DNA of 64,000 nt from a virus. Under the pieces are notes generated by a model. That model made no database searches. It had not been told where the DNA came from and saw only the letters and a program-made list of their open reading frames with translations. Location of the stretch: positions 1 to 64,000 of the IMG/VR virus record IMGVR_UViG_3300006735_000020; one strand, 5' to 3'. The position numbers and the translations under genes are program-made. Positions 2,276 through 47,399 of the stretch are shown piece by piece. Numbering within the stretch: position 1 is the first letter of the stretch; each line of letters begins with the position of its first letter.

Positions 2276-2277
2276 CC

Positions 2278-4122
2278 ATGCCAACTAACACAAACGAGAC
2301 ATCAAATAAGTTTTTAGATTTTAATCTTCCGCAGGACGCGTATGTTGCGTTTGATGCTGTAAGTTTAAAAGACTATATCATTAACCGGTTAGACGAGAAT
2401 CAAAAATTTACAGATCAAAACTACGAAGGTAGTAACTTAGCAGCAGTTATTGATATAATTGCTTATTCGTATCATGTTCTTCTATTCTACTTAAACAATA
2501 CAGCAGCTGAAGTAAATTTTGATCAAGCTACTCTATACGAGAACATGAATAAGATTGTTAAGTTGATTGGTTATAAACCAGCTGGTAAACAAACTTCAAT
2601 CGTGCCTATAAACGCCGTCGCATCTGCTTCACTACCTATAGGCAATTACACTATTCGTAAATATTCGTATTTTTTAGCTGATGGGGTACAGTATAATTTT
2701 AACAAAGATATATCTTTTAATAAATCAACTAATGGTGTAGAGACATTACAAAGTGTAAATGATGAAACAATATTATACCAAGGTACAATAAAAGAGTATC
2801 CAGATTACACTGCTCAAGGAGAAGAGTTTGAAATTCTACCTGTTGTGGTTGATAACATTGTTGATAGTAATAGTGATAAATTTATTGCTGATGGTACATT
2901 GAGCGTTTATGTTAAAGAAACGAGTAACAACACATATTATGAGTATGAAGTTATAGAAAGCTTATACCTTACAAAGTCAGTTGATAGAGTTTGTGAGTTG
3001 AGATTAAACGAATACGGTCACTACGAAGTAAAATTTGGAAATGGTGTGTTTGGTAAGAAGCTTGATGAGGGAGATATAGTATCAGTAAACTATATACAAT
3101 CTGATAATACCGCTGGTGTTATTAGTAAGAATATTATCAACGGTAATAAGCTGTTTGTTTATGACTCTACAAGACAGCGTGAATTGTTTCAAGACTTATA
3201 TCCAAACAAAGATGAAACTACCTTTTTAAATATTACTAATAGTCCAAAAATTACATTTAATAACCCACTCAACTCTTCTGCGCTATCTACAGAAGAAACA
3301 GTAGAGCAGATTAGACAAAATGCTCCAAAAATGTTTTCTTCGCAACTAAGATTGGTTACGGAGGGTGATTATCAATCATTTTTACAAAAAAATCTAGCCA
3401 ACATTGTCTCTAGTACAAAAGTTGTTAGTAATGATAGTTATATTAATGAATATATACAATATTTTTACGACATATGTGTCGATCCAAATAAAGTTAATAG
3501 AGTAATAATTAATCAAGTTAATTTCGCTGATTCATGTGACTTTAATAACATAAATGTTTTTGTCGTACCTAAATTTAAAATAACAGAGGATAAATCTTAC
3601 CCGCCTTTTTTGAGTAACTCGTTTAAAAATTATATTGTTACTCAAACGCAAGATAGAAAAATGTTATCGAATACTGTTGTACCGCGAGATCCTATTTACA
3701 TGGCTTTTGGATTAGGTATAGGCGATGCATCAGATTTAACATTGGATATACTTGATCAAACAAAATTATATGCTGTAAGAGAGACAAATAATAAAATTAA
3801 TAAGACAACTTTAAAGACAAGAATTGGTAGTTTGATTAAAAAGTTTTTTAATCCTGATGATAATGTGTTAGGTGGTAATTTAAAATTAATAAATCTTGCT
3901 AATGATATACTTTCTTTAGAGGGAATAAAACGAATCGAAACTAGGAATGAATCAACAGGAGAAATCTTTACCGGTGGTGTTTCGTTTTTATCATTCAATC
4001 CACAGTATCCAGATAGTGACATAGAATTAGTGAATCAAGATAAGACATTACCGTTTTTTAAGTTTCCATATTTATATTCGCCACTATCTGTAGCTGATCG
4101 CATTGTTATAACAGATGAGTAA
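2278..4122 (+). CDS. gp6: Baseplate wedge subunit gp6-like
   Basis: FTDQNYEGSNLAAVIDIIAY, YEVKFGNGVFGKKL, ETVEQIRQNAP...QLRLVTEGDY motifs. Confidence 0.88.
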   Translation: MPTNTNETSNKFLDFNLPQDAYVAFDAVSLKDYIINRLDENQKFTDQNYEGSNLAAVIDIIAYSYHVLLFYLNNTAAEVNFDQATLYENMNKIVKLIGYKPAGKQTSIVPINAVASASLPIGNYTIRKYSYFLADGVQYNFNKDISFNKSTNGVETLQSVNDETILYQGTIKEYPDYTAQGEEFEILPVVVDNIVDSNSDKFIADGTLSVYVKETSNNTYYEYEVIESLYLTKSVDRVCELRLNEYGHYEVKFGNGVFGKKLDEGDIVSVNYIQSDNTAGVISKNIINGNKLFVYDSTRQRELFQDLYPNKDETTFLNITNSPKITFNNPLNSSALSTEETVEQIRQNAPKMFSSQLRLVTEGDYQSFLQKNLANIVSSTKVVSNDSYINEYIQYFYDICVDPNKVNRVIINQVNFADSCDFNNINVFVVPKFKITEDKSYPPFLSNSFKNYIVTQTQDRKMLSNTVVPRDPIYMAFGLGIGDASDLTLDILDQTKLYAVRETNNKINKTTLKTRIGSLIKKFFNPDDNVLGGNLKLINLANDILSLEGIKRIETRNESTGEIFTGGVSFLSFNPQYPDSDIELVNQDKTLPFFKFPYLYSPLSVADRIVITDE

Positions 4123-6397
4123 TATACAAGTTAATTATGCAACCTTTGATGTAGAAGATTATAAGCGTGAAGCTAAATTATCTTCATACAATCTACCCTT
4201 TACACCGCTTACATTTAAAGCGCGTATACCTAGCTCTCTAGGCGGTGAAGCTGTAACTACACAATATAATACTCTTAAAGCAACCTTCGACTTTGGTGAT
4301 GGTACCTACGGTAACACACTAACAAGTATACACGCATACCAATATCCAGGCGTATACAATGTTCGAATGATTTTACGGGATTGTGATAACAATAGTATAT
4401 TAGCGTCATATAGTACTAATGTCACAATACATGATTATATTACTAATACTTTTACTTTAACAGCAGGTCCGACTAAATCTAATATATTAGAATTATCAGC
4501 AGGTGAATTTTCTAACCCAATAACAATTAATTCCCAGACGCCCTTTTATCAAGATTTTCAAGATATCTATTTTTCTGTATCAGGGTGTGATGTACCTAAC
4601 TTTTTTAATCTAAAACCAAATAAATTTAATAACCTTAGAGCATTTCACTCGTTTTATAAGAAAAACTACATTGACACGCTATCGGGATTTGAATATGAAG
4701 AGATAAAGAAAATGTCTTTATCATCTACAAACATATATATACGTTTAAGTGGAAACAATCATACATCAGGTAAAGGACCAACAGCTTTCTCTATAGTTAA
4801 CACTATTAGTTCACATATTTCAAGCTTTCACGCTGGTAGCTCTGGTAAAGATATATTTTATTTTAAAACTGACAAACAAAAACAACCCTATAGACCTATT
4901 AACATATCTCTCTTTAAAGATAGAGATAATATTTTTTCAGATACTACATCTGGGTTTAAGAATAACGATTATTCAAATAACTTTACTATTGCTCTCTCTT
5001 CTTTAGTTGGAACGGTTTCTTCGCAAACTATTAGTAGTATAGCAATCACATCAAATGGTATACCTGGTGAAGGTGACAGTGTCACAACTTTTGAAGTTTC
5101 ACCAGTTCAATTTAAAGGGTTAGGTATCCCGTTTATTTTATCACCAAAGAACACAGGTTATTATACAATGAAGTCGTTGTCAAGTAACACAACACCTACA
5201 TTCGAATTGTTATCTGGAACATCACCAGAAATTATACCTGGAGTCAGTGGTGTTGTTGTATCCACAACTCATTATGATATACAGAGTTTAAGTGGCGCGC
5301 CTTTATCTGCTTTTGATACAAGATTTTGGTATAGAGGTTTGTTAACATTTAATGACAAGACCTTAGCGACACTTTCTGGTAAACCATCTGTATTAACTTT
5401 AAGCGCCAAATGTTTATATGAAGATACTGCTACGAGCCCAACGTTAAAAAATACTGTAACTGGTTTTGCTCCATTTACCTGTTACCCTAAAAATTATTAT
5501 GAAGCTTATAAACAAAATGAAAATTTTGATTTTGAGCAAACAATAAAAGATTTAAGATTTCAAGAAATATTATTAGATAAAGATATACTATTTACGGATT
5601 TTATAGGTACTATATTTGGTAGTGTTAGTAGCGATTATACTGTTCTTGGTAAAAAGTTATGGTCAAAGATACAAAACTTTACATCAAATACTAATGATAT
5701 AGATTATTGTGATATAACATCTCTTATTAATTTAGCTAGTTTAACAGATGATGATGGTATAGTATTTGATAGAGCTTTGGCCCAGCAACCGGAGATGGTA
5801 GATAGGTTAATGAGTGTCTTAAGTGTTAACTATAATAAATTTAGAGGTACACAAAATAAATTTGATGAAAATTATAACCCTCAAGGACATACGACAAAAG
5901 CCACATATGGTAAAAATTTAGATGGGTTGTTAAATACATCAACATATGAAGTATCTGCCGGTACAGATATAGTAGCTTATGAAAAATTTAGTGAAACGTA
6001 TACAAGGTTAAATACATATCAACCTCTATGTGCACTAAGTGGTGGGTCTGGTGAGTTTGGCGCAGCATATTCACGTTCACGTAATACAAATACATATATG
6101 TTAAGTGATTTTAGTACAACCGTACCTACAGGATCTGCTATAACGAGTAGTGGCTCGTATTGGGGGTGGCCTTTAGTATTACCAACGTCGTATGATACAA
6201 CAGAAGTAGATAAATTTTATAAATTTTACAGTCTATCTGCTGGGTTTGATAATACTATAGAAGGAGGGTTAATTGATTATAAAAATGGCTTAACAACACT
6301 CGATTATAGTACACCACTCAGTTCACTAGAGGGTGATAACAATGTATTTGATGTTATGATTCGAAACTCCTTATTTAGTAGTCTATCTCTGTTCTAG
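4115..6397 (+). CDS. Virion structural protein with N-terminal PKD-like domain (baseplate region)
   Basis: FDFGDGT...HAYQYPGVYNV PKD-like motif; follows gp6. Confidence 0.65.
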   Translation: MSNIQVNYATFDVEDYKREAKLSSYNLPFTPLTFKARIPSSLGGEAVTTQYNTLKATFDFGDGTYGNTLTSIHAYQYPGVYNVRMILRDCDNNSILASYSTNVTIHDYITNTFTLTAGPTKSNILELSAGEFSNPITINSQTPFYQDFQDIYFSVSGCDVPNFFNLKPNKFNNLRAFHSFYKKNYIDTLSGFEYEEIKKMSLSSTNIYIRLSGNNHTSGKGPTAFSIVNTISSHISSFHAGSSGKDIFYFKTDKQKQPYRPINISLFKDRDNIFSDTTSGFKNNDYSNNFTIALSSLVGTVSSQTISSIAITSNGIPGEGDSVTTFEVSPVQFKGLGIPFILSPKNTGYYTMKSLSSNTTPTFELLSGTSPEIIPGVSGVVVSTTHYDIQSLSGAPLSAFDTRFWYRGLLTFNDKTLATLSGKPSVLTLSAKCLYEDTATSPTLKNTVTGFAPFTCYPKNYYEAYKQNENFDFEQTIKDLRFQEILLDKDILFTDFIGTIFGSVSSDYTVLGKKLWSKIQNFTSNTNDIDYCDITSLINLASLTDDDGIVFDRALAQQPEMVDRLMSVLSVNYNKFRGTQNKFDENYNPQGHTTKATYGKNLDGLLNTSTYEVSAGTDIVAYEKFSETYTRLNTYQPLCALSGGSGEFGAAYSRSRNTNTYMLSDFSTTVPTGSAITSSGSYWGWPLVLPTSYDTTEVDKFYKFYSLSAGFDNTIEGGLIDYKNGLTTLDYSTPLSSLEGDNNVFDVMIRNSLFSSLSLF

Positions 6398-6412
6398 AGA
6401 TAAATATGTTTA

Positions 6413-9406
6413 ATGGATACTATTGTTACAGGCTACCCTGAAGTAGATTTATCTATAACTAATCCTAATGTAAAGCGTGATGATGCATTAGATAGGTTTA
6501 CTCCATTTTCTTTTGTTCAGTTTATAGAAACTGTAACTGAGCAATATAATCCGGATACACTAACTGGATTTTATAATACGTATATTAGTAGATGGAATAC
6601 ACAAATTGAAGGTAAAGATAGTGATAATAAAGATATAATAATTGAACGATATCGTGACTTCTTAAAAGATATTACTTTAAATTTTTCTACTAATGCAGAG
6701 CGAAGATATCTTACACAGTTAGATTTTTCAGACGCGCATGATTTAGAAGTAGCGATGTCTTTTTACAGTAAAAAGATACGAAGTATTATATCATACTACA
6801 AAAGCAAAAGACAGAAGCTACATTACGCATCTACAAAAGCAAAAGTAAAAGGTAGTACATTAGGCGCAGAGCAGGCTGCTATAGATCTTATTTTAGAATT
6901 TTTAGAAAATCGAAGTACAGCTGCTAAGGACTACGATATAGATAAAATTAAAGAAAAGTTATCAATATCTATGACAGAGTATTTCGATAACTTCGCACAA
7001 TACTTTAATAGGGATCCTAACGCGTCATCTTATGGTGAAACTTTTAAAGGTTACGATCCTTTACAAACACCACGGGATAATATATTTTTATCAGATGATG
7101 AGTCTCTTATACAACAAGTTTTTGCTAATGTCGCGAGTGATTTAATTGAGCTTAAAGAAGCTCAGCAAACTTTAAATTTTAACATAAAAGAAGATTCATT
7201 ATTCAATAATAAAAGAAAGCTTACAGAAAAGTTTATGGGGGCTGACTTCTATTATATTGCAACAGATGACGATGGACATCCGGAGCTAGATGAAAACAAC
7301 AATATAAAAATGTTGTTTAAAGCTGAAAAACCATATGCTAATTTCTTAAATCAAGATTTTCCATCAACTGCGTCAGTTTTTTCTAATGATATAATTAGTA
7401 AGCGAGATCTAGGATTTTTTAGACCGCAAAATTCTGCAATTGTAGTTATCGAGGGTAAGAGATTACAATTTTTTACAAGAAAAAAATACCCACCAAATCA
7501 ATTATATATTTTTCCTGATCCTAGTTTATTTACAAATACAGAAAATGTTCTTACATTTATTATTGATACATCACGCGCCATTAATAACGCAAGTAAGGGT
7601 ATTGCAGTTAATCAGCCCAACACAGATAGAGACAGTACCGCTTTTATAGGTTATAATTCTGAAATGGGGCAGGATAGAAACTTAAATACTGATCTATCTT
7701 ATCTATTCGATGAAGGTTATATTTATGATGGTAAAAAGGATCTCATCGGTAATATATTTGGGTTAGTAAAGGACTCAAATTACTATAGAAATAATGTAAC
7801 ACTTGAAACGCGTAAACAGGTTAAGAGTCTGTTAATGAATGGTTATCAGTTTTTTGATGATCTATACGGTGAAGGATATAAATTTTCTTATAAAACAGCT
7901 GACTCGTCTACATTTTCTGAAACTATAAGATCCGGATTATCTACATTCACTAATGGGTTTACAGGTAGAGGGCCTGCTGACTTATTACCTGATACGCCTG
8001 GTAGCTGGACGAGCTTCCCAACTTCTGCTTATAATATATTTTACAGATATTTTAACCCATATCAAGGGCTAAAAGAGCCATCTAATTACTTAGAAGTTGA
8101 CTATAAGAGACCGGAGGGCTTAGTCATAGATGCAGATGTAAAGGAGGGAGCATATTTTGCCTTTTCAGATACAGAAGCTCTCGTAGACCCAACAAGTGCA
8201 ACTGATATAGGTGTGTCAAATGTTTCAGATTTAAGCTCCTACGCTACAAGCACTGCACAATTTTATTTTTCAGAACTAGCTGAAGCGGGTATCGGGTTGT
8301 TTAACTCAAATCCGCCGTACCCTGCTTCGTTTCCTAATAAGACTATCTTCACAGCGTTATGTGATCCAACTGATGCTTTTACTAAAAGTCTTGTAGGTAA
8401 CTTTAGTTACAATGTACGTTTATCTGGTGGGTCTGGAAACTCAGGGAATGATGTTAAAAATTATGACGGTGGGTTGTTTACAGATAATATAATATTCAAT
8501 TATTCACAAAATAGAGAGACATTTGATTATAATACTGACGTCTTTGCAAAGACGTCTATTGCAGATGTAACATCAGCGACTTCAAGATTTTTTAATAAGA
8601 GAGAGCATTTAGGTAAAATATATGTTAAAAATATAAACAAAGCGTGGAACGCGCCAGCGGTACAAGAGCTTACAGAAACACTACCATATCTCTCCACTAA
8701 ATATAACAAAGCGGTTTGTAATGAATTATCTACAGCTGTGGTTAATTTTGATATCTTCTATAATACACTTTTTATTGAGACAAGTAGTTATGTAGTTATT
8801 GAAAGAACTAACTATGACAAAGATACGTTTGAAACACCAAACACATTTACCAATTCTTTAACAATAAATACAAACTTTTTTGATAAAGCTAGTAATAGAT
8901 TAAAAGTTGAGGATAATGTTTTTTATTGTCGAATGGCGAGGCAGCAAGTAAATTATAAAGGTGATAATTTTTACCCAGAAATTTACAGATATAATTATAC
9001 AAAAGATAGTAGCGAACAAATATACCCAACAGCTGGTAACTCTGTTCTTTCGTCAGCAGCATATTTTGCATTAACGGCTGATGATTCTGTATACATTGAA
9101 TGTAGTCGCCCGCAACTAACCTATAGCAGTGATAATAATCAATTTAATCTCGCTGTAATCTTAAAGGATCAGAATAAAGGCCCAGTTTTATTAAATTATC
9201 TCTTTGAGTATGTTGATGACATTAAGTTTTTAAATACAGAGGCGTATGTATGTAATAATAGTAGATTTACCTTTAACTTTACTCAATCTGCAAAAAATAT
9301 ACGTAATTTAAATAATATTAATTTTGTACTATCGTCTATCGTACCTACACTTACAACAACATACGTTACCCCTTCACCTTTATCCGGAGCAGCTTTAATA
9401 CTATGA
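6413..9406 (+). CDS. Large virion structural protein (baseplate/tail region)
   Basis: 997-aa ORF, TAAATA late motif 6 nt upstream, gene context. Confidence 0.6.
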   Translation: MDTIVTGYPEVDLSITNPNVKRDDALDRFTPFSFVQFIETVTEQYNPDTLTGFYNTYISRWNTQIEGKDSDNKDIIIERYRDFLKDITLNFSTNAERRYLTQLDFSDAHDLEVAMSFYSKKIRSIISYYKSKRQKLHYASTKAKVKGSTLGAEQAAIDLILEFLENRSTAAKDYDIDKIKEKLSISMTEYFDNFAQYFNRDPNASSYGETFKGYDPLQTPRDNIFLSDDESLIQQVFANVASDLIELKEAQQTLNFNIKEDSLFNNKRKLTEKFMGADFYYIATDDDGHPELDENNNIKMLFKAEKPYANFLNQDFPSTASVFSNDIISKRDLGFFRPQNSAIVVIEGKRLQFFTRKKYPPNQLYIFPDPSLFTNTENVLTFIIDTSRAINNASKGIAVNQPNTDRDSTAFIGYNSEMGQDRNLNTDLSYLFDEGYIYDGKKDLIGNIFGLVKDSNYYRNNVTLETRKQVKSLLMNGYQFFDDLYGEGYKFSYKTADSSTFSETIRSGLSTFTNGFTGRGPADLLPDTPGSWTSFPTSAYNIFYRYFNPYQGLKEPSNYLEVDYKRPEGLVIDADVKEGAYFAFSDTEALVDPTSATDIGVSNVSDLSSYATSTAQFYFSELAEAGIGLFNSNPPYPASFPNKTIFTALCDPTDAFTKSLVGNFSYNVRLSGGSGNSGNDVKNYDGGLFTDNIIFNYSQNRETFDYNTDVFAKTSIADVTSATSRFFNKREHLGKIYVKNINKAWNAPAVQELTETLPYLSTKYNKAVCNELSTAVVNFDIFYNTLFIETSSYVVIERTNYDKDTFETPNTFTNSLTINTNFFDKASNRLKVEDNVFYCRMARQQVNYKGDNFYPEIYRYNYTKDSSEQIYPTAGNSVLSSAAYFALTADDSVYIECSRPQLTYSSDNNQFNLAVILKDQNKGPVLLNYLFEYVDDIKFLNTEAYVCNNSRFTFNFTQSAKNIRNLNNINFVLSSIVPTLTTTYVTPSPLSGAALIL

Positions 9407-9939
9407 ATACTTTTACTCTCTCTTTATCTACAACACAAGCTGGTGATTCTACACTCTATGAAACTATTGATCTTTTCGATGTTACTAGCTTTAATATAAA
9501 TTTGGTAGATATATTTACCGATACATTTCCAAATTATCTAGCAATTGATTGGGGCGACGGTACACCTGTACTAGAGCCCAATGTTACTATTTTTCGCGAC
9601 TATTTAAAGGATTCAATATATCCTGAAGTAAATAGAGGTATTGCACCAAAATATCTATCAGATCTATATAATCATATATACGAGCCGTCTAATTATGCGC
9701 TTAACAAGTCTGTAGTATTAAAAATTAATGTGGGGTATGTTACAGGTGAAACGACGCAATTAAGCGCACCTATAAATATACGAACGGGCGGTTATTATCA
9801 AACTGTTGAAGATATTGACTTAGTAGGGCTGGATCTCTTAAACAAAAGCTATAATAGCTCTAGATTTACATTTCTTACTAAAAAAGATAATTATATAGTT
9901 CAATTGGATAACGAATCTTATAAAGAAGACACAGCATAA
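9403..9939 (+). CDS. Structural protein with PKD-like motif
   Basis: IDWGDG motif; overlaps upstream stop by 4 nt. Confidence 0.55.
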   Translation: MNTFTLSLSTTQAGDSTLYETIDLFDVTSFNINLVDIFTDTFPNYLAIDWGDGTPVLEPNVTIFRDYLKDSIYPEVNRGIAPKYLSDLYNHIYEPSNYALNKSVVLKINVGYVTGETTQLSAPINIRTGGYYQTVEDIDLVGLDLLNKSYNSSRFTFLTKKDNYIVQLDNESYKEDTA

Positions 9940-9948
9940 ATATTGTTA

Positions 9949-12327
9949 ATGGGATCTTTAGTAAAATCTAGTCTAAGTGCACTTAGCTCAGCAGAGGCTA
10001 GCTTTTGTCCGATGAATATTGAATTAGATCAATTTCCACGGACATTTAATGGCGGCTTTAAGATAAATTTTATTCAAGCTCTCTCTAGCTCACAAAGCTT
10101 TAAAAATTTAAATTATACTAACTTTTATCTTACTAATAATGTTTTATTAGATAGCGTTACAACATATAACGCACCAAAAATAAAGCCGAAAAAATATACA
10201 TCGACGTTAAATTTTGGAATTAGCGCTACGGCTTTTTGTACCTTCAAACAAGCTTCCTTAAGCACGTTTAAAATACAAAATAATATTTACGAAGCAGAAA
10301 ATTATGGGACAACATCAATTAGCTCTGAGAAGGGTGATGTTTTTGAAATTGAATTAGTGGATGATTTCAATTGTAGAGTTGCAACACGTGTTAACAATAT
10401 TCGATATTTTCTTGTTGTAGAAGATGATAACACTAGCGAGTTTAAAGATACACGTGAAGTATTATTTGTTGCAGAAAGTCAGTTACCTTTATCAGGCTTT
10501 AATCTAAACTACAACTTATGTAAATATACATCAATAAGCTATATTAATTTATATTCAACAAAAGCTAAATCTGGTACCCGGACGGTTTACGCCCTAACGA
10601 GTGATGGAAATAAGGTTGTAGCTACAAGATTAAATCCAATAAATCAATATAATGAACTTGCAGTTACAGCTTTTAGTATAAGACTGGATCAGGAATTAAA
10701 TTTAACTCTACCGTCTCCGTATAATACATCATATATAACATATGATAATTCCGGTAAGGTTAAAAATGCAGCAAGCGATTTTAATTTACCCTCTAACTAC
10801 TTATTTTATAGTTCGAGTAACAACGATAAGCAGGTTTTTAATTTTTTAACTTTAAAAAATATAGTAAATACACAAGATTCATTTACATCATCAAATAACC
10901 TCCTATCTACATCTGAAACTACTACCTTTGCGCAAAATTTAAGAAACTATACTAGTATTTTTTCTGACGTAGATAGTGAAGAAAATGAAACATTAGCATT
11001 AAACTATATTTACAATAATTATGATATAGTTATTAGGTCAGGCACGACACGCTTTACAACACCATCTTCACTTCAACCCTTTGATAAGATTAATATCAAT
11101 GATACAAAATTTGCAGATTGTGGTTCTTTTTCATTCGTTACGCCAGATTTATCAGATAGGGTATACAGTTTAGATGATAACTCTATTAAAGGTGAAAATG
11201 TAACCTACTTATGTACGTGGTTATCTGGTGGTATAGGTAAACGCGGAACGTGGGTAGATAGATATTTTTATCCTGATTTAGTCACAAAAGAAGAAGCTTT
11301 AGGCGGAGTTGGATCATTTAATGTAACTTATGATCAAGCTGTTGAAAACTTAATTATGACTAATTCAGATCTTAAGACGTCGGTAACTGAAAAATATTAT
11401 TTTGATAAAAAGAGTGATTTAGTTTTTGAACCATCAAAAAGATACAAATATGTGAGAATTGCAAAACAAGATTTTACTAAAAAATCTCCGACAAATTTTT
11501 GCGAAACTTCGGTTGTAAATAGAAAGGTTAATAATTACTTTTCTAATATAAATGAAAATGGTGGTTTTGGATTAGGATTTACAATACAAAACGATACAAA
11601 TGATTTTTATATAGAGTCGGAATATAATTCAATTGACGGTGGTATTTGTTTTAAGAAAAATGGAAAAACTTGTAAGTTTACCTATAAGTTATTTGATAAT
11701 AGCACCGAAGGTTTAAGTTTATCAGCTAGGATTGCGCAAACAACGTATGAGTATGAATTTGATATTGATTTATTTGAACAAAATAATGTTTTCTTATCTT
11801 TTGATGCTGTATTAGGTGAGTTTAAATTATATTTAAATTCAATTGAGTTGTATACATTTGAAATTAACGCTTTTCAAATGTATACTAAACGACTTCTATT
11901 TGGTGATATTTTCATATATTATATGAATGAGGATAATGAGCAACAAAGTATAGAAATATTACGTAATGCTGCTAGCGACCCGGAAGATAGAATAGCTATT
12001 GATAATCTATATCTCTCCCTCGAACCTCTTAATGAGAATGAACGATTAGCTTTCTTGTTTAATTCCAGTCTTAATAATATACAAGATATTACTATATCTC
12101 TACCGTGTGGTCAGAGAAATTTAACAGACAACATACAATTAGTAAACTCGATTAATACAAATCTCAAACATAAGAGTAATGCGGTGGATATTAACATTAA
12201 GAATTTAAATATAACAGACAGTAGTATTCGCGATGAGGTTAAAAATATTATTTTAACAAACATTAAAAACTCTATTCCTAAAACAACTAATATTAACGAG
12301 GTTAAATTTATAAACTATAAAAAATGA
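9949..12327 (+). CDS. Virion structural protein, possible ConA/LamG-like domain (start revised to ATG 9949)
   Basis: TAAATA 9937-9942 then N6-ATG; beta-rich C-terminal half (VFLSFDAVLGEFKLYLN). Confidence 0.55.
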   Translation: MGSLVKSSLSALSSAEASFCPMNIELDQFPRTFNGGFKINFIQALSSSQSFKNLNYTNFYLTNNVLLDSVTTYNAPKIKPKKYTSTLNFGISATAFCTFKQASLSTFKIQNNIYEAENYGTTSISSEKGDVFEIELVDDFNCRVATRVNNIRYFLVVEDDNTSEFKDTREVLFVAESQLPLSGFNLNYNLCKYTSISYINLYSTKAKSGTRTVYALTSDGNKVVATRLNPINQYNELAVTAFSIRLDQELNLTLPSPYNTSYITYDNSGKVKNAASDFNLPSNYLFYSSSNNDKQVFNFLTLKNIVNTQDSFTSSNNLLSTSETTTFAQNLRNYTSIFSDVDSEENETLALNYIYNNYDIVIRSGTTRFTTPSSLQPFDKININDTKFADCGSFSFVTPDLSDRVYSLDDNSIKGENVTYLCTWLSGGIGKRGTWVDRYFYPDLVTKEEALGGVGSFNVTYDQAVENLIMTNSDLKTSVTEKYYFDKKSDLVFEPSKRYKYVRIAKQDFTKKSPTNFCETSVVNRKVNNYFSNINENGGFGLGFTIQNDTNDFYIESEYNSIDGGICFKKNGKTCKFTYKLFDNSTEGLSLSARIAQTTYEYEFDIDLFEQNNVFLSFDAVLGEFKLYLNSIELYTFEINAFQMYTKRLLFGDIFIYYMNEDNEQQSIEILRNAASDPEDRIAIDNLYLSLEPLNENERLAFLFNSSLNNIQDITISLPCGQRNLTDNIQLVNSINTNLKHKSNAVDINIKNLNITDSSIRDEVKNIILTNIKNSIPKTTNINEVKFINYKK

Positions 12328-14288: not shown

Positions 14289-14302
14289 GATAAATATAGA
14301 TA

Positions 14303-17092: not shown

Positions 17093-17124
17093 TATTTTCA
17101 AATTGTGACATAAATAATAGTAGT

Positions 17125-18204
17125 ATGCCAGAAAGTTTAACAAATCAATTTATATCTGATTTTTACACTTCTTTGCTCCATTTAAGTGGTGCGGAGTTAG
17201 GGGATACTTTAAATAAAGTTTTTGATGGTGCTGGTAATTCTACAGGACTTGCGTTAAGTGGTGATAGAGTTATAATTAATAATTATATATACCCTGAAGG
17301 ACCTCTATCTGAACCAATAGAATGGTTAGATGCGTTTTTCCCTGTTGGTTGTCTCCAATTAACTTTTGATAATATAAACCCTCAAACAAGAATAGCTGGA
17401 ACTACTTGGGAGATAGCTGCAGAAGGAAGGTTTTTAGTGGGTGTTGGTGGTCATACAGATAAAAACACCGATTATAGAAAATTTTGTGAAGATGGCTTAC
17501 CTCCTGAGTCTGGTAACAGAGCAGGTGAATATATGACAGAGCTTAATGTTGGTAACATGCCAGCACATACACATACAACTAATGTTGGTTCTAATGATGT
17601 ATTTGTATCTACCGGTACAAGTGTTGCTAATGGCCAGCCCTTTGTTGCAACAGGGGTAGGTGTGACAAATTCAACACAAGCATGGCAAGAGCAGCAACGG
17701 GCAAGAAACGCGTTAGGAGCAGCGAGTGGATGGAATTGGAATAATCAGTTTGGAAACAGAACAGCAAATAATGATGATCCACAAGATATTGTAAGAAGAT
17801 CACTTGATCTTAATTTTCAATTAGGTTCTGCTGCAAACTATGATCCGGATATAAGAAGCAGATATCTAAGTAATACACAGTTTCAATATAAAGAAGTAAT
17901 CGGACTATGGAATGGTGAAACGCGATTTGTAGCGAGTAAATCGCCTTTAGGTAATGGATCGCAGTGGGACTTTAATGCTTATAGTTGGTGTATCGAGAAG
18001 GGTGCTGTGGATGTAGGGTCAGCACAAGCTGGAGAGCTAGCTAATAATGCTAGCCGTGCAAGTGTTGTAACAAGAGATAATCAGCAAGTTAATTTTAATG
18101 AAGGATCTGAGAGCATTAGACAATCTACGTCTGTAGGTGAAGGTAAAAAACATAATAACATTCCTCCATCATATGGAGCATATGTATGGAGAAGAATAGC
18201 ATAA
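17125..18204 (+). CDS. Baseplate/short tail fibre protein, paralog of 14303
   Basis: MPESL..Q.ISD.YTSLLH.SG N-terminus shared with 14303; MPAHTHT; C-terminal HNNIPPSYGAYVWRRIA. Confidence 0.72.
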   Translation: MPESLTNQFISDFYTSLLHLSGAELGDTLNKVFDGAGNSTGLALSGDRVIINNYIYPEGPLSEPIEWLDAFFPVGCLQLTFDNINPQTRIAGTTWEIAAEGRFLVGVGGHTDKNTDYRKFCEDGLPPESGNRAGEYMTELNVGNMPAHTHTTNVGSNDVFVSTGTSVANGQPFVATGVGVTNSTQAWQEQQRARNALGAASGWNWNNQFGNRTANNDDPQDIVRRSLDLNFQLGSAANYDPDIRSRYLSNTQFQYKEVIGLWNGETRFVASKSPLGNGSQWDFNAYSWCIEKGAVDVGSAQAGELANNASRASVVTRDNQQVNFNEGSESIRQSTSVGEGKKHNNIPPSYGAYVWRRIA

Positions 18205-18210
18205 AAAATC

Positions 18211-19761
18211 ATGGCAAATATTACTATAGTAAAATTAAAAGTTAGAAGAGGTACTGATAGTCAGCGTCAAGACATTGTATTAGATCAAGGAGAGGTTGGT
18301 TATACTCTTGATTCTAAGAGATTATTTGTTGGTGACGGAGCAACTTACGGTGGTACTGTTGCTGGTAATAAAGCAGTAGGCCCATTTGCATCAGTTGCTA
18401 GTTTAGGTCCAGGTGCTGGGGAATCTCCTTACTTACAAATCGGTGACCTTGGATATGCAGATAGTCGGTTATATATTTTAACTGGAGCTAGCTCGACTGG
18501 TAAAGCATATACTAATGCTTTGTCAGGATGGGCATATATAGGCAATATACCTGATGATACATCTATCGAATTTGATAGTAATAATAAGCTTTCTGTTAAA
18601 AACCAAGGTTTAGATTCGCAAAATATAGGTACAACATTTTTTGGAGATGGTTTATTATCATCTAATACAGAGGCTGGGCAAGCAAGTGTAGCATTCAATA
18701 CAGACTTTTTAGAGTTATCAAGTGCTGCTGGAGTAAAAGGGAGGCTAACACCTAAGCAGAATTCTATAACAAAGCGAGAAATAAAGGCTTTATTTCCATC
18801 TGCAAGTGGTTTAAAAGGCGGGGACGGTGAAGAGTTATCTCTCAGCGTTAATGAAGATCAATTTAAGTTTGATGTTAATAATAAGTTAGAACTTAAGAGT
18901 GTTGGATCATTATCATTTCCTATATCTACATGGGCTGGACCAGGCGATGGAACATCCTCAACAGAGGGTAGATTAGGTGGTGGTTTAACTGTAAATACAG
19001 CATCTAATAGACTCGAAACAACATTACAATCTGTTGACGGAGCACTTTTAATAAATGATAACGGCGTTGTAACATTAAATGGATCTACTTCAGCATTTCA
19101 AGAAATGCCTTATGTTAATGTAGAAAAGGGGTTAGTCACTGACGTACAAAGCTCTATATTTGATGTTGTAACAGCTACTGGGTTATCTGGTGCAGGTGCT
19201 GGTGATGGTGTGCCAATTGGTTCTATTTTACCACATGCGCAAGCGTTTAGCACCCCTCCCGCAGGTTATCTATTGTGTGATGGTCATGCATATGATGCAA
19301 ATACTGATCCGAAGTATAGACAGCTTTTTGATAAGATAGGTACTGTATATGGAGGTACAGGAATGTCTCTCTTTAGAGTACCGAGTTTAACTGGTGGTGA
19401 CGTTATGCTTTACGGTGCAGATGGTGCTATTACAGCAAGTACAAAAACACTATTCTTAAGTGCTACTGATGATGATCCTAACGGACTGCAGCAAAATAAT
19501 TTAAGCGCCTTTGGTGTTAACTTTATTATTAAATATGCTGAAGATCCTGTTTTAAACATCTTTAATGGCGCTCCTAATCAGGTGAGTCAGGGATTTTTAG
19601 GTAAATATGCACAGCAAGTATGTAACGGATTAGATTCAGGTGGAGGTGCAGTATCTTTAAGTTCTGCTGGATTTATTACCATGGCTTTATCCGGTGCTGT
19701 GCGTAATAGCGGTAGTAATGAAACATTTGATAGATTTGCAATACCGGTTTATAGCTATTAA
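18211..19761 (+). CDS. Tail fibre protein with tail-collar domain
   Basis: N-terminal VRRGT...GEVGYTLDSKRLFVGDG; collar motif VPIGSILP...GYLLCDG...LFDKIGTVYG. Confidence 0.8.
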   Translation: MANITIVKLKVRRGTDSQRQDIVLDQGEVGYTLDSKRLFVGDGATYGGTVAGNKAVGPFASVASLGPGAGESPYLQIGDLGYADSRLYILTGASSTGKAYTNALSGWAYIGNIPDDTSIEFDSNNKLSVKNQGLDSQNIGTTFFGDGLLSSNTEAGQASVAFNTDFLELSSAAGVKGRLTPKQNSITKREIKALFPSASGLKGGDGEELSLSVNEDQFKFDVNNKLELKSVGSLSFPISTWAGPGDGTSSTEGRLGGGLTVNTASNRLETTLQSVDGALLINDNGVVTLNGSTSAFQEMPYVNVEKGLVTDVQSSIFDVVTATGLSGAGAGDGVPIGSILPHAQAFSTPPAGYLLCDGHAYDANTDPKYRQLFDKIGTVYGGTGMSLFRVPSLTGGDVMLYGADGAITASTKTLFLSATDDDPNGLQQNNLSAFGVNFIIKYAEDPVLNIFNGAPNQVSQGFLGKYAQQVCNGLDSGGGAVSLSSAGFITMALSGAVRNSGSNETFDRFAIPVYSY

Positions 19762-19773
19762 ATATTTTAACAC

Positions 19774-21435
19774 ATGTCCATACAAATTTTAGAAAACACA
19801 TTATTAAAACTTCTTGTTAGGAGAGGTACGAATTTTGATCGACAGCAAATAACATTAGAAACTGGCGAATTAGGTTACACAACTGATACAAAGAGATTAT
19901 ATATTGGTGATGGTACAACTAAGGGTGGTATTATAGTTGGAAATAAATGGGCAGGTGAAGCAGCTGATCTAACATCATTAGCACCTGTAGCGAGTGGTGA
20001 TTATGCATATGATACAGATAATCGTGAATTTAAAATTCTAGTTAAAGGTACAGGAAGCGTAGCAGCTGATTGGGTAACTGTTGCAACATATTTAAGTGCA
20101 TTTAACCCATCTATTAATATTGACGCCAATAATAGGATATCAGTTGGTACATTATCAGCTGGTAATTTTTCTTTAAATGCAATAGGAAATTCCTTAACAA
20201 TCGATGGATCAGAAAAATTAGCGTTAAGTTCTACTATAAGTATAGACAAGATTACACAGAATAGTACGGGCTTAACTGATTATCTTACTCTACCATCAAA
20301 AGTAGATGTAGGTGGTGTACCATATACTTTTCCTACTACAGGTCCGCAAAAAGAGGACTTTTTGGCTTTCGAAAAGAGTAATGGCGCTGGGGGATCTCAA
20401 CTTGCTTGGAAAGTACCCAAAGAAGTTTTAACAGCTGTTGCACCAACCACAGCTGCTTTAATTCCGGTTGGTTCTATTCAAACATATGCCGGTCCATTGA
20501 CAAGTGCACCATATGGTTGGTTGAATTGTAACGGGCAAGCTGTTAATGCTGTAACATATTCTGAGCTTCTCACTGCTCTTAATGGACAATATGGGCGTAA
20601 TTTTACAGATAATACTTTCAATGTTCCAAATTTAAGTTCTACATTTATACATGGCTTTGATTCAACAACCAACAGTCTAGGAGCTCAATTCCCTTCTCGT
20701 GGAGTAGGATTATCGGCTCAAAAAACAACACTTTCAGCTGTTGGTATGAATTTTATTATCAAAGCTTTTGGCGGTGTAACTAATCCAACATATACCATTG
20801 GTAAAAACTTATCTGCTACTATTACTTCAGGATCAGGTGTTACACAAAATGTAACCGATACAGCCTTTAACCCACTTAGTGGTGAAGTAAGAATAACAAG
20901 ACCACAGCCTGGTATGCAAATATACGATACACCGAATATAGAACATACCTTTAAAATGCCAGGTGGTGTATCGTATGTTAAGTTTTACGTAACCGGGTCA
21001 GGATCTCCCGGTGATAAGCAATCGGGTAACGCCGGTGCTACAGCTATTGGATATCTTTCTGCAAAACCCGGAACAGAGTTTCCAGTTATTGTTGGAGCCG
21101 CTCCAATTGGACTTACTAGCGGACAAACTAGTTACATATATGAACCTAAAGCAGATGGTAATGATCCAATAGTTACAGCGCCAGGTGGCGCGTTTGGTTC
21201 AATAGACGCTGCGTCTCCAACAATTGCTGAAAGTGGATATTTACCGACAGGTACATTAAGGATTTTAGGTGGGGTTGGATTTATCGATACAGACGATGGT
21301 GGAGATGAAGAAGATGTTGGTGGAGCTGGATTTTATGGACACTCACCTGCATATGGCGGGGGTGGAGGGTCACATGCTGATAAACCCGCAAGTGCTGCCG
21401 TTGCAACTGGTGTTGTTGTGTTTGAATGGAACTAG
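19774..21435 (+). CDS. Tail fibre protein with tail-collar domain, paralog of 18211
   Basis: VRRGT...GELGYTTDTKRLYIGDG; IPVGSI...GWLNCNG...FNVPNL; Gly-rich C-terminus. Confidence 0.8.
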   Translation: MSIQILENTLLKLLVRRGTNFDRQQITLETGELGYTTDTKRLYIGDGTTKGGIIVGNKWAGEAADLTSLAPVASGDYAYDTDNREFKILVKGTGSVAADWVTVATYLSAFNPSINIDANNRISVGTLSAGNFSLNAIGNSLTIDGSEKLALSSTISIDKITQNSTGLTDYLTLPSKVDVGGVPYTFPTTGPQKEDFLAFEKSNGAGGSQLAWKVPKEVLTAVAPTTAALIPVGSIQTYAGPLTSAPYGWLNCNGQAVNAVTYSELLTALNGQYGRNFTDNTFNVPNLSSTFIHGFDSTTNSLGAQFPSRGVGLSAQKTTLSAVGMNFIIKAFGGVTNPTYTIGKNLSATITSGSGVTQNVTDTAFNPLSGEVRITRPQPGMQIYDTPNIEHTFKMPGGVSYVKFYVTGSGSPGDKQSGNAGATAIGYLSAKPGTEFPVIVGAAPIGLTSGQTSYIYEPKADGNDPIVTAPGGAFGSIDAASPTIAESGYLPTGTLRILGGVGFIDTDDGGDEEDVGGAGFYGHSPAYGGGGGSHADKPASAAVATGVVVFEWN

Positions 21436-21467
21436 TTGCTTTATAGCGTAGAGAAAATAACTACAAT

Positions 21468-21635
21468 ATGGAAGAAGTTATAGTTGAAGGTCTCGATTTT
21501 GAAGACTTTGTAACTCTAAAACAAATTTTAGCTAATAACACTAGCTTTAGATATGGTGAAAGTCAACTGCATGCTGACACCAGTATTTTAATTGAAAAGA
21601 TAGATAAAATTCTTCAAGTCTTTGATGAAGAATAA
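21468..21635 (+). CDS. Small acidic hypothetical protein (55 aa, not in ORF track)
   Basis: ATG 21468 to TAA 21635, MEEVIVEGLDFEDF...QVFDEE; fills the intergenic gap. Confidence 0.6.
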   Translation: MEEVIVEGLDFEDFVTLKQILANNTSFRYGESQLHADTSILIEKIDKILQVFDEE

Positions 21636-21643
21636 ATACTTGT

Positions 21644-21856
21644 ATGAATACAAGTGTTTGCAGAGCTAATGCACTCTGCGAAGAATTTTCCGACTACGTT
21701 ATATATGATAACGAGTCTGAAAGTATCCTTGTCAATATACCATTCGAGCACTTTAAAACGGTACATTTAGAGTTATCAAAGTTAGGTTACATGTTAGTGT
21801 TTAAAACACAAATCAAAAAAACAAAATCTCTAACCTGTACTTTTATAAAGGAATGA
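21644..21856 (+). CDS. Hypothetical protein
   Basis: 70 aa; TAAATA 21633-21638 lies 5 nt upstream. Confidence 0.6.
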   Translation: MNTSVCRANALCEEFSDYVIYDNESESILVNIPFEHFKTVHLELSKLGYMLVFKTQIKKTKSLTCTFIKE

Positions 21857-21872
21857 GTAATTAAATATATAT

Positions 21873-22799
21873 ATGGCAGCATTAGCAGGATTTCCAACAG
21901 ATATATCATTACCCGCGGAGGCAAGATATTATACCTTCGTCGAAGTTGGTAAATCTTTTAATTCAAATTATGATATTACGTGGTCTTTTCAATATAAGCT
22001 ACCGAGTACTAGTTTTGGTACAACAGCTAAATCTCATAATTATGAATTAGGTTTTTCAACGTTTTTAACTAATTTACCTAAACCTCTATCTTGTCTACCT
22101 GGACAATATATTGGTGATCAAGACCCAGAATTTGTATTATCAGCAAATGCACTGCTGACGGAAGGATATACCGCCGCAGGTGTTTTATCCTCTTCTGAAC
22201 CTTTAAAAACAGAAGGCGCTTCTACAGTTTTACTCCAAGGGGCTGTACTTAGTGGTATGTTAGTTAAAGTAGCGTTTGATTCTACTGGTAAATACGCGTT
22301 AACAGGTAGAGATGATCGACCCGGGGTAAAGCCTCACCAAGTATTAAGAGAATCAATTATAACACGAGACTTTTTACATAATGTAGTTGTTAATAACCAC
22401 CTTTCTTCCATTTCTACTACATTTAGTACTATATCTACAGATACATATAGAACTTTAAGATTTAGGTATGTTGATCTTGGACGAACCCTGTATGTTGATT
22501 CACGAGAGAGTGATACTACAACATATACTTTACTAACAGCTATTAACCTCGGTACAAGATATAGTACTCTTTCTAATATAGAAAACATTTATTGCGGGTT
22601 TGCCTTCTCTACTCCAATTTCAGCGAATTATGCAGCAACTGCTGCTGCTTATCAATTAAGTGCAAAAGACTTTTTCTTAAGAAACTTTCATGTTGAAGGG
22701 TATGAAGGAAGTGAGGTACTTACTGAAACTATACGTACACCTCGTTTAAGTTCAGTGCCTAGTACTCCATTTACAACTGTTACTAACATTACTGCATAA
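21873..22799 (+). CDS. Virion protein with probable L-type lectin/ConA-like fold
   Basis: LVKVAFDSTG and IYCGFAFST resemble legume-lectin VAVEFDT / VYVGFSAST strands; late motif upstream. Confidence 0.5.
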   Translation: MAALAGFPTDISLPAEARYYTFVEVGKSFNSNYDITWSFQYKLPSTSFGTTAKSHNYELGFSTFLTNLPKPLSCLPGQYIGDQDPEFVLSANALLTEGYTAAGVLSSSEPLKTEGASTVLLQGAVLSGMLVKVAFDSTGKYALTGRDDRPGVKPHQVLRESIITRDFLHNVVVNNHLSSISTTFSTISTDTYRTLRFRYVDLGRTLYVDSRESDTTTYTLLTAINLGTRYSTLSNIENIYCGFAFSTPISANYAATAAAYQLSAKDFFLRNFHVEGYEGSEVLTETIRTPRLSSVPSTPFTTVTNITA

Positions 22800-47385: not shown

Positions 47386-47399
47386 TATATTTATATAGG

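Follow-up and report, generated by a model that had tools for sequence, protein, structure and literature searches.

Does a three-residue motif scattered over the virion proteins of a marine T4-like phage mark serines for decoration by the phage's own glycosyltransferases? The window, i.e. the whole stretch of DNA that was analysed, comprises 64,000 nucleotides (positions 1 to 64,000 of IMG/VR record IMGVR_UViG_3300006735_000020), and a first reading of its letters, made without database searches (the sequence-only reading), had proposed that the tripeptide L-S-[A/G/S], written here as LS[AGS], saturates the peripheral virion proteins and serves as an O-glycosylation sequon. The clade to which this phage belongs is uncultured, marine and T4-like; we found no cultured relatives of the clade with structures or proteomics, and among 50,697 phage records there are no relatives of either the 760-aa protein encoded at 4115 or the gp13-like neck protein (ORFs are named by their first coordinate in the window).

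Enrichment of LS[AGS] in the virion block

A strong excess of LS[AGS] is evident in the proteins encoded between 4115 and 22799, where the motif occurs 57 times compared to an expectation of 10.1 ± 3.2 (z = 14.8; the maximum in 2000 shuffles is 22). When all 8000 tripeptides in the same block are ranked without prior choice, LSA, LSS and LSG take ranks 1 to 3, with p-values of 3e-10 to 2e-8; the same scan on two unrelated phages returns top p-values of only ~1e-4. The composition-corrected expectation is 0.8–1.7 sites per protein, and shuffling proteins individually gives p < 0.002 to 0.01 in seven of them (Table 1). The hand counts behind the sequence-only reading were reproduced (15, 8, 9 and 6 sites in 4115, 18211, 19774 and 21873; none in gp25, gp6 or UvsW, the latter encoded at 50705; one each in gp43 and gp46), and the enrichment that they suggested withstands every composition correction, including the shuffles of the block. 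The 120 homologues of the 760-aa protein together hold 1762 sites where 213 are expected, and over the virion proteins of this phage and its clade the excess over chance is about sixfold.

Table 1. Features of the window that bear on the LS[AGS] motif
Feature	Coordinates	Strand	Observations
gp25 and gp6, inner baseplate wedge	1787..4122	+	0 sites; gp6 has 7 LS dipeptides; internal negative controls
760-aa baseplate-region protein	4115..6397	+	15 sites
997-aa structural protein	6413..9406	+	5 sites, all within the C-terminal 400 residues; p = 0.008
794-aa structural protein	9943..12327	+	6 sites; p = 0.004
654-aa structural protein	12324..14288	+	4 sites; p = 0.010
359-aa protein, gp10 C-terminal domain	17125..18204	+	2 sites (weak); paralogue of 14303
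516-aa fibre protein, Mtd_N and tail-collar domains	18211..19761	+	8 sites
553-aa fibre protein	19774..21435	+	9 sites; A/G/S follows 9/9 LS dipeptides
308-aa virion-block protein, unknown family	21873..22799	+	6 sites; p = 0.002
275-aa GT2 glycosyltransferase	26341..27168	+	Pfam PF00535; starts 11 nt past the Thr/Pro-rich 1176-aa protein
219-aa glycosyltransferase (Glyco_tranf_2_5)	36049..36708	-	in the block of replication and deazaguanine genes; conserved in G008 and G006
233-aa TylF-type O-methyltransferase	39997..40698	-	Pfam PF05711, E = 1.1e-18
410-aa glycosyltransferase	46153..47385	-	phrog_7162, E = 1.2e-23; TATAAATA 3 nt upstream of ATG

The excess depends on the order of the residues: the permuted orders and near-cognates S[AGS]L, [AGS]SL, [IV]S[AGS] and LS followed by a charged residue are at or below expectation, and LT[AGS] is weakly raised (16 vs 10.0, z = 1.9). 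SL[AGS], [AGS]LS and L[AGS]S show an apparent excess because they share residues with LS[AGS] (SLS, LSS) and because small residues are mildly preferred immediately before it. The N-glycosylation sequon NxS/T was also looked for in the proteins of the block and is not enriched. At the nucleotide level, the 57 sites are mostly different nine-base words, the commonest of which occurs three times, and leucine and serine codon usage at the sites matches the background, with both AGY and TCN serine codons in use; since the codons are mixed, the signal resides in the protein and not in the DNA, and a DNA motif is ruled out. A tandem repeat or shared domain is excluded as well, as the sequence-only reading had maintained: all-against-all BLAST of the tag-bearing proteins detects similarity in just two paralogue pairs (one of them 18211 and 19774, across the N-terminal 250 residues of the latter) and no internal repeats, and no logo extends beyond the three residues, with almost no information in the flanks (positions -8 to +10). 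Together, these results confirm that the enrichment is real, order-specific and exerted at the level of protein.

Restriction to virion proteins

Twelve virion proteins hold 67 LS[AGS] sites vs 11.4 expected, while the 77 non-virion proteins hold 14 vs 15.2, i.e. they show neither an excess of the motif nor any avoidance of it; the same split is seen in relatives G002, G003 and G008. Within the particle, the core parts gp6, gp25 and portal have no site where 2.8 are expected. The excess is thus limited to virion proteins, and the confinement that had been read from a handful of proteins is upheld, with core and non-virion proteins at or below expectation. The statement that the motif saturates the peripheral virion proteins is correct for several of them but too broad, given that the Gly-rich gp10-like protein 14303 (929 aa, 1 site), the Thr/Pro-rich 1176-aa protein at 22799 and two giant proteins of relatives show no excess. 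A general trait of T4-like tail proteins is ruled out by the structural proteins of T4 (12 sites vs 11.5 expected) and of the cyanophage S-MbCM100 (14 vs 18.1).

The carriers of the motif are Ig-like baseplate proteins, fibres, an insert in the gp13-like neck protein, a C-terminal extension of the gp15-like protein, the variable insertion of the major capsid protein and the hypervariable product of an ORF that follows the capsid gene; the sites are internal and dispersed over these parts of the baseplate, fibres, neck and capsid insertion, and this contig does not include the tail tube and sheath. In the conserved neck proteins the tag occurs in lineage-specific additions: five of the six sites of the gp13-like protein are in its variable insert, and all four sites of the gp15-like protein fall in the extension, outside the conserved gp15 domain (residues 9–219). 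The capsid sites are found in the insertion, which is rich in Gly and Ser and whose alignment to T4 gp23 is poor. The motif serines may be exposed on the particle.

Structure prediction adds a partial view. The 760-aa protein has an N-terminal PKD domain (Pfam), and its AF2 model (pLDDT 63.6) predicts a string of Ig-like beta-sandwiches over residues 10–457 followed by a low-confidence helical part; Foldseek matches it to S-layer proteins, integrin legs, Hoc and titin, all as generic Ig-like strings only. The AF2 model of the gp13-like protein, with a pLDDT of 33.5, is unusable. In the 760-aa model, motif serines lie in strands as often as other serines do, and 7 of 15 are near flexible loops compared to 17 of 74 other serines (p = 0.06), a proximity that is only suggestive.

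Conservation, turnover and a structural alternative

Among relatives with at least 60% identity, the motif serine is conserved in 97.4% of cases vs 73.5% for other serines; among more distant relatives the values are 70.8% and 38.4%. The serine is the most conserved of the three motif positions, and the third position remains A, G or S in 95.6% (≥ 60% identity) and 78.8% (distant) of cases, toggling freely among the three residues. By these measures of conservation, purifying selection is shown to act on the leucine, the serine and the small residue. Comparison of G000 and G008 (63 and 57 sites) finds 39 sites in common, and the lineage-specific ones fall on near-cognates; in the main clade, the excess is made up of positionally conserved sites. 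The distant clade represented by G006 differs: of 36 sites in G000 and 20 in G006, just 3 columns are shared, and at 29–35% identity the motif is lost at 33 of 36 fold-equivalent positions, with new sites arising elsewhere, while G006 still has ~3.4 times the expected number. The gp13-like insert carries 3–6 sites in each of 66 homologues, over insert lengths of 81–128 residues, and the hypervariable protein encoded after the capsid gene has 50 sites vs 7.2 expected, at shifting positions. Between distant clades, positions turn over while the density of sites stays high.

Could the fold of these proteins account for such a pattern in cis? A local structural preference, in which leucine opens or closes a beta-strand and serine plus a small residue forms a capped turn, may have been fixed repeatedly in the beta-sandwich and fibre modules of this clade with no reader in trans. 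The proteins are indeed beta-rich, with Ig-like strings, several sites in the 760-aa model are located exactly at strand ends or starts (residues 211, 366, 707, 22 and 202), and the positions are conserved inside the main clade. In the gp13-like insert, L176, S177, F180, F164 and F223 are invariant, and the resulting L-S-x-x-F, with its Phe at +4, looks structural, being typical of a packed strand. Two expectations of a modification site also find no signal: threonine accounts for 24.2% of the replacements at motif serines and 23.5% at other serines, so that the Ser/Thr interchange that might be taken as a sign of O-glycosylation is not favoured, and the motif is not avoided by non-virion proteins. 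Set against this, the structural proteins of T4 and the cyanophage share the same general architectures and have no excess; the secondary structure around the sites varies, from strand interiors and strand ends to loops and a helix end, and the flanks are uninformative; and a turn tied to the fold does not sit easily with the loss of the motif at nearly all equivalent positions in the distant clade at a density still ~3.4 times expectation. Moreover, a strand serine next to a conserved hydrophobic residue is expected to be solvent-facing and variable, whereas the motif serine is conserved more strongly than its two neighbours, and the tag is found neither in beta-rich core parts nor in the conserved gp13 and gp15 domains. 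We regard a purely structural origin as unlikely, though it deserves serious weight.

On this evidence LS[AGS] is best described as a short linear, serine-centred tag that is held by selection at high density in lineage-specific parts of the virion which presumably face outward.

The sugar machinery of the phage

More than 13 kb of the genome is devoted to sugar chemistry, with about nine soluble glycosyltransferases and nucleotide-sugar enzymes. The glycosyltransferases comprise a GT2 enzyme, a Glyco_tranf_2_5 enzyme, a GT77-type enzyme, two exostosin/RXYLT1-like enzymes, a GT11 enzyme and the 46153 enzyme, the family matches being GT2, Glyco_tranf_2_5, Nucleotid_trans, Exostosin_GT47 (two ORFs, with Pfam Exostosin_GT47/RXYLT1_C matches), GT11 and phrog_7162; alongside them are SDR epimerases/dehydratases, an RfbH-like enzyme, NDP-sugar dehydrogenases and the TylF methyltransferase. 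Family searches thus bear out the three glycosyltransferases (26341, 36049 and 46153) and the TylF enzyme named in the sequence-only reading. None of the glycosyltransferase or sugar ORFs has a hydrophobic or membrane segment (three ORFs in 89 kb have any), and no membrane export parts for sugar machinery are present among the ORFs of the genome; periplasmic, lipid-linked O-glycosylation of the Bacteroidota or PglL type is ruled out, the membrane segments that it requires being absent.

A late-type TAAATA motif is found upstream of 28 of 95 ORFs, compared to 2.2% of random 25-mers; virion genes make up most of this set, which also includes glycosyltransferase 46153, so that of the sugar genes said to follow late-type motifs this is the one for which the claim is confirmed. 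Homologues of 46153 are encoded in G002, G003, G008 and G006, and the enzyme is core to the clade, with at least 550 stretches in IMG/VR at 63–96% identity. Its name 'glycosyl transferases group 1' comes solely from automatic ESM Atlas cluster names, and those clusters are all viral; sequence and profile searches of the PDB retrieve no relatives of either 46153 or 36049. Two cultured phages with remote homologues of 46153 (PsgM04F and Justusliebigvirus, 24–30% identity) have no tag, at an identity too low to be informative.

The co-occurrence of tag and glycosyltransferases, which had been put forward as a check, offers no independent contrast. All sampled tag-bearing relatives carry 46153 and 36049. 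Glycosyltransferase 26341, present in G001, G004, G006 and G007, is absent from the G008 record (171 kb, estimated 81% complete), in which local synteny is intact and the tag is fully kept; 26341 is thereby ruled out as the reader of the tag. Because both the tag and 46153 are clade-wide, their co-occurrence counts as a single event. The neighbours of 36049 and 46153 are replication and 7-deazaguanine genes, so that the substrate of the two enzymes could be DNA instead.

A possible glycosylation sequon and other candidate readers of the tag

Our favoured reading, offered tentatively, is that LS[AGS] may be a glycosylation sequon decorated by the phage's own soluble glycosyltransferases. Late in infection, a soluble phage-encoded glycosyltransferase would place a sugar on the serine hydroxyl in the cytoplasm, and its acceptor pocket would accommodate the preceding leucine and the small residue that follows. 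The clade-core enzyme 46153, with its late-type promoter, would be the best candidate for this step, and the glycan might be extended and varied by the remaining soluble glycosyltransferases, the nucleotide-sugar enzymes and the methyltransferase, a set that is not the same in all relatives. That the tag has a reader at all, that this reader belongs to the glycosyltransferases, and the choice among them are inferences. Of the glycan coat originally proposed, what stands is a selected, virion-restricted tag and a soluble sugar machinery; nothing ties the tag to glycosylation, threonine exchange is not favoured and there is no avoidance elsewhere, and a methylated coat would add a second conjecture to the first. 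The fuller picture, that in an abundant uncultured aquatic T4-like superclade the outside of tail, neck and capsid bears an O-linked glycan coat, attached at LS[AGS] by a late, clade-core glycosyltransferase and extended by strain-variable, giant-virus-like glycosyltransferases, is a shade more doubtful still.

A selected, context-free, virion-restricted serine tag would be expected equally if the reader in trans were something other than a glycosyltransferase, whether an enzyme that phosphorylates or acylates the serine or attaches a phosphocholine-type group or a phospho-sugar to it, or else an assembly factor or decoration protein for which the motif is a docking site; the strict preference for serine over threonine would suit some Ser-specific enzymes. 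Family searches of the examined ORFs find no kinase, acyltransferase or phosphotransferase candidate, the genome is invested in sugar chemistry instead, and three residues are too weak a motif to serve as a binding site for a docking protein, so that we consider another reader improbable. As for an artefact of composition, DNA-level signal, hidden repeats or post hoc choice, the motif was first picked by eye in proteins rich in Ser, Gly and Leu, but the unbiased scan ranks the same three tripeptides first, the shuffles give the z of 14.8, codons are mixed, BLAST finds no repeats or shared modules and two unrelated phages reach only ~1e-4, which makes this explanation negligible.

Relation to known systems

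The general O-glycosylation sequon of Bacteroidota is D-(S/T)-(A/I/L/V/M/T), and the modification is extracytoplasmic, acting on exported proteins from a lipid-linked glycan donor. The LS[AGS] tag resembles it in being a three-residue motif with a restricted residue class after the hydroxyl residue, scattered over unrelated proteins; it differs in that the phage enzymes have no membrane segments, the virion proteins are cytoplasmic, and the motif has Leu before, a small residue after and Ser only. GtfA/GtfB, which modify serine-rich repeat adhesins, and TibC/Aah, which heptosylate autotransporters, are soluble cytoplasmic glycosyltransferases that act on many serines of a beta-rich surface protein. 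The proposed phage system would likewise use soluble cytoplasmic enzymes on many serines before assembly or export; the substrate there is a single protein with long tandem repeats, whereas here single tripeptides occur in more than 12 unrelated proteins. No sequence relation of 46153 to the GtfA/GtfB or TibC/Aah enzymes is demonstrable by sequence and profile search of the PDB.

Among viruses, the acceptor sites of PBCV-1 deviate from the canonical sequon. The capsid of PBCV-1 is described as glycosylated by virus-encoded soluble glycosyltransferases, including the xylosyltransferase A075L (PMC11571054; PMC7826918), an exostosin-like enzyme that builds the capsid-protein glycan (PMC11571054). 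As would hold for the set proposed here, the whole glycan-building set of PBCV-1 is virus-encoded and works without a host ER/Golgi or lipid-carrier route, and both viruses have exostosin-like enzymes (at the Pfam family level); in PBCV-1, a eukaryotic giant virus, the glycan is N-linked to the major capsid protein, whereas the candidate linkage here is an O-linkage to serine on many phage proteins. The closest phage precedent is in mycobacteriophages, whose own glycosyltransferases place glycans on the C-termini of capsid and tail-tube subunits, with the chemistry demonstrated (Freeman et al. 2023, Cell Host Microbe 31:1216, as cited in PMC12619734). The two cases have in common the phage's own glycosyltransferases, virion proteins as proposed acceptors, a predicted cytoplasmic action and a presumed shielding of the surface; the modified sites there are in C-terminal tails, unlike the internal, dispersed tripeptide on baseplate, fibre, neck and capsid-surface parts considered here, which is known from sequence alone. 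Full-text searches of the literature returned no published description of an LS[AGS] tag, and nothing specific on glycosylated tail proteins or such a sequon.

Implications

If the motif is structural, it would be a rare clade-specific, convergently fixed turn motif, of narrower interest. If LS[AGS] is a sequon, this would be the first case in a bacteriophage of protein glycosylation directed by a sequon, and it would provide a three-residue handle for in vitro tests of phage glycosyltransferase specificity. The identification of virion proteins in metaproteomes would be affected, because modified peptides go unseen. The clade is abundant: its core glycosyltransferase is represented in IMG/VR by at least 550 stretches, and Tara and ENA add many contigs. 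A sequon would mean that, in a very common group of ocean phages, the surfaces in contact with host and environment carry a sugar coat of the phage's own making, which would matter for recognition of the host, for the stickiness of the particle and for its resistance to proteases and grazing.

Enrichment of LS[AGS]

The enrichment of the Leu-Ser-(Ala/Gly/Ser) tripeptide LS[AGS], here called the tag, in the structural genes at 4115-22799 (the structural block) is a correct observation and a strong one. The hand counts per protein in the sequence-only reading were all reproduced on recount; composition predicts 0.8-1.7 sites per protein, and in seven proteins the count is above that of the protein's own shuffles (p <= 0.01). 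Because the motif had been chosen post hoc, we carried out an unbiased scan of all 8000 tripeptides over the 6048 block residues, with per-protein composition as the expectation; LSA (18 observed vs 2.6 expected), LSS (21 vs 4.3), and LSG (18 vs 3.4) fill ranks one to three of 8000 (p between 3e-10 and 2e-8). In total the block has 57 sites, vs 10.1 ± 3.2 in 2000 shuffles, whose maximum was 22. Within the block, permuted orders of the same residues occur at or below expectation, neither [IV]S[AGS] nor LS followed by a charged or bulky residue is in excess, and LT[AGS] is weakly raised (16 vs 10.0, z = 1.9); NxS/T is not enriched, and the same scan on two unrelated phages gives a best p of only about 1e-4. 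Leucine and serine codons at tag sites mirror overall usage, with AGY and TCN serine codons both present, and the commonest nine-base word under the sites occurs three times; the signal therefore lies in the protein, and a DNA-level signal is ruled out.

The genome and the proteins that carry the tag

The window covers the initial 64 kb of a viral contig of 89,324 bp, and the source phage is a divergent T4-like myovirus. Identity between its DNA polymerase and those of cyanophages reaches only about 32%; a search of 50,697 deposited phage genomes gave no relative of the structural-block proteins, which have hundreds in marine metagenomes (Tara, ENA, IMG/VR). Only three ORFs in the 89 kb have any hydrophobic segment; one encodes a 151-aa protein with two such segments at its N-terminus, which may be a holin or other membrane protein.

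Features of the contig (G000; window coordinates unless another record is named) and of the related uncultured phages G002, G003, and G008
Feature	Position	Strand	Remarks
gp44 clamp loader, gp25, gp6	in window		
Large structural genes	4115-22799		block of 19 kb
Thr/Pro-rich protein	22799-26329		1176 aa
GT2	26341-27168		
151-aa protein	27409-27864	(-)	
Glyco_tranf_2_5	36049-36708		
Glycosyltransferase (GT 46153)	46153-47385	(-)	410 aa; phrog_7162, E = 1e-23
TATAAATA	47386-47395		ends 3 nt upstream of GT 46153 ATG
Replication module	in window		primase, gp41, gp32, UvsX, gp43, gp46/47, UvsW
7-deazaguanine genes, head-internal proteins	in window		
Sugar island	beyond window		13 kb; then gp15-like, portal, gp13-like, prohead protease, scaffold genes
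gp13-like neck protein	G000 85767-87059		phrog_211; beyond window
Further glycosyltransferases	on contig		second GT2, GT77-type, two exostosin/RXYLT1-like, one GT11-like
Nucleotide-sugar enzymes	on contig		three SDR epimerase/dehydratases, RfbH-like enzyme, two short NDP-sugar dehydrogenases
TylF methyltransferase	on contig		
Hypervariable ~200-aa protein	G003 77980-78669; G002 2916-3530; G008 121826-122425		directly after major capsid gene
Two adjacent giant ORFs	G003 79310-96563; G008 123557-137212	(-)	2260-3397 aa; beside capsid module

Counted across the entire contig, the tag occurs 67 times in twelve virion proteins (11.4 expected) and 14 times in 77 non-virion proteins (15.2 expected). 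Together, gp25, gp6, portal, protease, scaffold, and the Thr/Pro-rich protein have none (2.8 expected), which includes the zero already reported for the core proteins gp25 and gp6. The gp15-like protein, encoded outside the window, carries all four of its sites in a C-terminal extension, and its conserved gp15 domain has zero; five of the six in the gp13-like neck protein lie within a hypervariable low-complexity insert. The records of G002, G003, and G008 extend further and contain two more tag-bearing proteins, namely the major capsid protein (1-3 sites each; 70 vs 20.6 expected over 36 homologues), with its sites in a Gly/Ser-rich insertion whose alignment to T4 gp23 is poor, and the hypervariable protein encoded after it (3-4 sites). 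None of the roughly 50 replication and metabolic proteins of these three phages was flagged. Twenty T4 structural proteins have 12 sites vs 11.5 expected, and the baseplate proteins of cyanophage S-MbCM100 (12.5 thousand residues) 14 vs 18.1, ruling out the tag as a general property of T4-like tails. The claim that it saturates peripheral virion proteins holds for many of them, but not for the Gly-rich gp10-like protein, the Thr/Pro-rich protein, or the giant proteins of relatives, which show no clear excess (giant ORFs of G003 and G008, 3 vs 4.4 and 11 vs 6.4).

The Thr/Pro-rich protein (0 sites vs 1.0 expected) ranges from 753 to 2058 aa in relatives; the GT2 gene starts 11 nt past its gene, and G008 has a large protein of this type and lacks the adjoining GT2 gene. 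The protein after the capsid gene matches no PHROG family; its C-terminus is conserved, and its N-terminal half is almost completely different between relatives.

Selection, turnover, and context of sites

Alignments with IMG/VR relatives, split at 60% identity, covered eight families. At or above this threshold the motif serine is identical in 97.4% vs 73.5% for other serines, and the third residue remains A/G/S in 95.6%; below it, the values are 70.8% vs 38.4%, and 78.8%. The motif leucine is also conserved above other leucines, and the alignments as a whole indicate that the tag is under selection. Homologues of the 4115 protein (120 sequences, 44-100% identity) contain 1762 sites vs 213 expected, 9-19 per protein, and the third position varies within a column (e.g. 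G45/S40/A28/T7) while serine is kept in 106-117 of 120. Comparison of the contig with G008 (50-70% identity) gives 63 and 57 sites, 39 of them shared, with near-cognates (e.g. ISS, LTS, LST, LCA) opposite lineage-specific sites; comparison with G006, from a distant clade (29-35% identity), gives 36 and 20 sites with 3 columns shared, and tag density in G006 is still about 3.4 times expectation. The gp13-like insert (81-128 residues, hard to align) has 3-6 sites in each of 66 homologues, and the protein after the capsid gene has 50 sites vs 7.2 expected, 1-4 per protein at shifting positions. These comparisons show that positions turn over while density stays.

As first proposed, the tag-bearing proteins are non-homologous and the tag is not a tandem repeat: there are two paralogue pairs only and zero internal repeats. 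The flanks of 66 sites (-8 to +10) carry almost no information beyond a mild small-residue preference at -1. AF2 models the 4115 protein (pLDDT 63.6; residues 10-457 reasonably confident) as a string of Ig-like sandwiches, for which Foldseek matched S-layer proteins, integrin legs, Hoc, and titin. Sites occur at strand starts, ends, and interiors, in loops, and at one helix end; location in a strand is no more or less frequent for motif serines than for other serines, and short low-confidence loops adjoin 7 of 15 motif serines vs 17 of 74 others (p = 0.06). Residues 461-591 (window 5495-5887), 131 residues predicted helical at very low confidence, hold 9 Ser, 12 Leu, and zero tag sites; the Ig-like part differs.

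Sugar machinery and late promoter

Family matches found on the contig the three glycosyltransferases (26341, 36049, 46153) and the TylF methyltransferase of the sequence-only reading. No sugar-machinery ORF has a membrane segment, so the glycosylated product is made in the cytoplasm, be it protein, DNA, or a host carrier. Conservation of both GT 46153 and GT 36049 extends to G002, G003, G008, and G006; GT 46153 matches at least 550 IMG/VR stretches (63-96% identity) and is, judged by this distribution, a clade-core gene, and its ESM Atlas clusters, viral throughout, are named 'glycosyl transferases group 1'. GT 26341, beside the structural block, is absent from the G008 record (171 kb, estimated 81% complete), in which the tag is intact and neighbouring gene order is kept; it is therefore ruled out as the reader. 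The sugar island of G008 differs in gene content: G000 64835-79497 and G008 96401-109463 are unlike in relatives that are otherwise syntenic, and several G008 island ORFs have no counterpart in G000, as expected for a strain-variable glycan.

Of 95 ORFs, 28 have the late-type motif TAAATA in the 25 nt preceding them, vs 2.2% of random 25-mers. Several sugar genes had been placed behind such motifs; this stands for GT 46153, and the remaining cases are mostly virion genes. G002 and G003 retain the GT 46153 motif, which is degenerate in G008 and G006. The gene is flanked by gp43 and gp46, and its cluster is otherwise early/middle. TAAATA is often 5-8 nt from the start, leaving no room for a Shine-Dalgarno sequence.

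What reads the tag

A trans-acting reader best explains the features of the tag taken together, because the tag is clade-specific, virion-specific, and context-independent, its central serine is more conserved than the hydrophobic neighbour, the residue after serine is limited to small ones, density is kept through positional turnover, and the sites within conserved neck and capsid proteins occupy lineage-specific additions. Serine O-glycosylation is the leading candidate, which we favour tentatively and short of calling it probable, given the large investment in soluble sugar chemistry and a late-promoter, clade-core glycosyltransferase. The link is circumstantial, since there is no independent phylogenetic contrast, Thr is not a preferred replacement at the motif serine, non-virion proteins do not avoid the motif, and the pattern partly looks structural; further, DNA-metabolism genes surround the conserved glycosyltransferases, for which DNA is a possible substrate.

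That the tag is a cis-structural motif we consider rather unlikely, though site positions are conserved within the main clade and the gp13-like insert, flanked by highly conserved sequence, has as its only invariant residues L176, S177, F164, F180, and F223. L176, S177, and F180 are spaced as L-S-x-x-F, F164 and F223 fit the same spacing, and the arrangement resembles packed strands, pointing toward a structural role there. A trans reader other than a glycosyltransferase is more doubtful still. With composition, DNA signals, and repeats excluded, an artefact is exceedingly improbable.

No published account of a tag like this turned up in full-text literature searches. There are precedents for virion glycosylation: that of mycobacteriophages, as cited in PMC12619734, and that of a chlorovirus capsid by virus-encoded enzymes, including an exostosin-like one (PMC11571054). 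By O-glycosylation, the tag serine would be the modified residue and GT 46153 the candidate enzyme.
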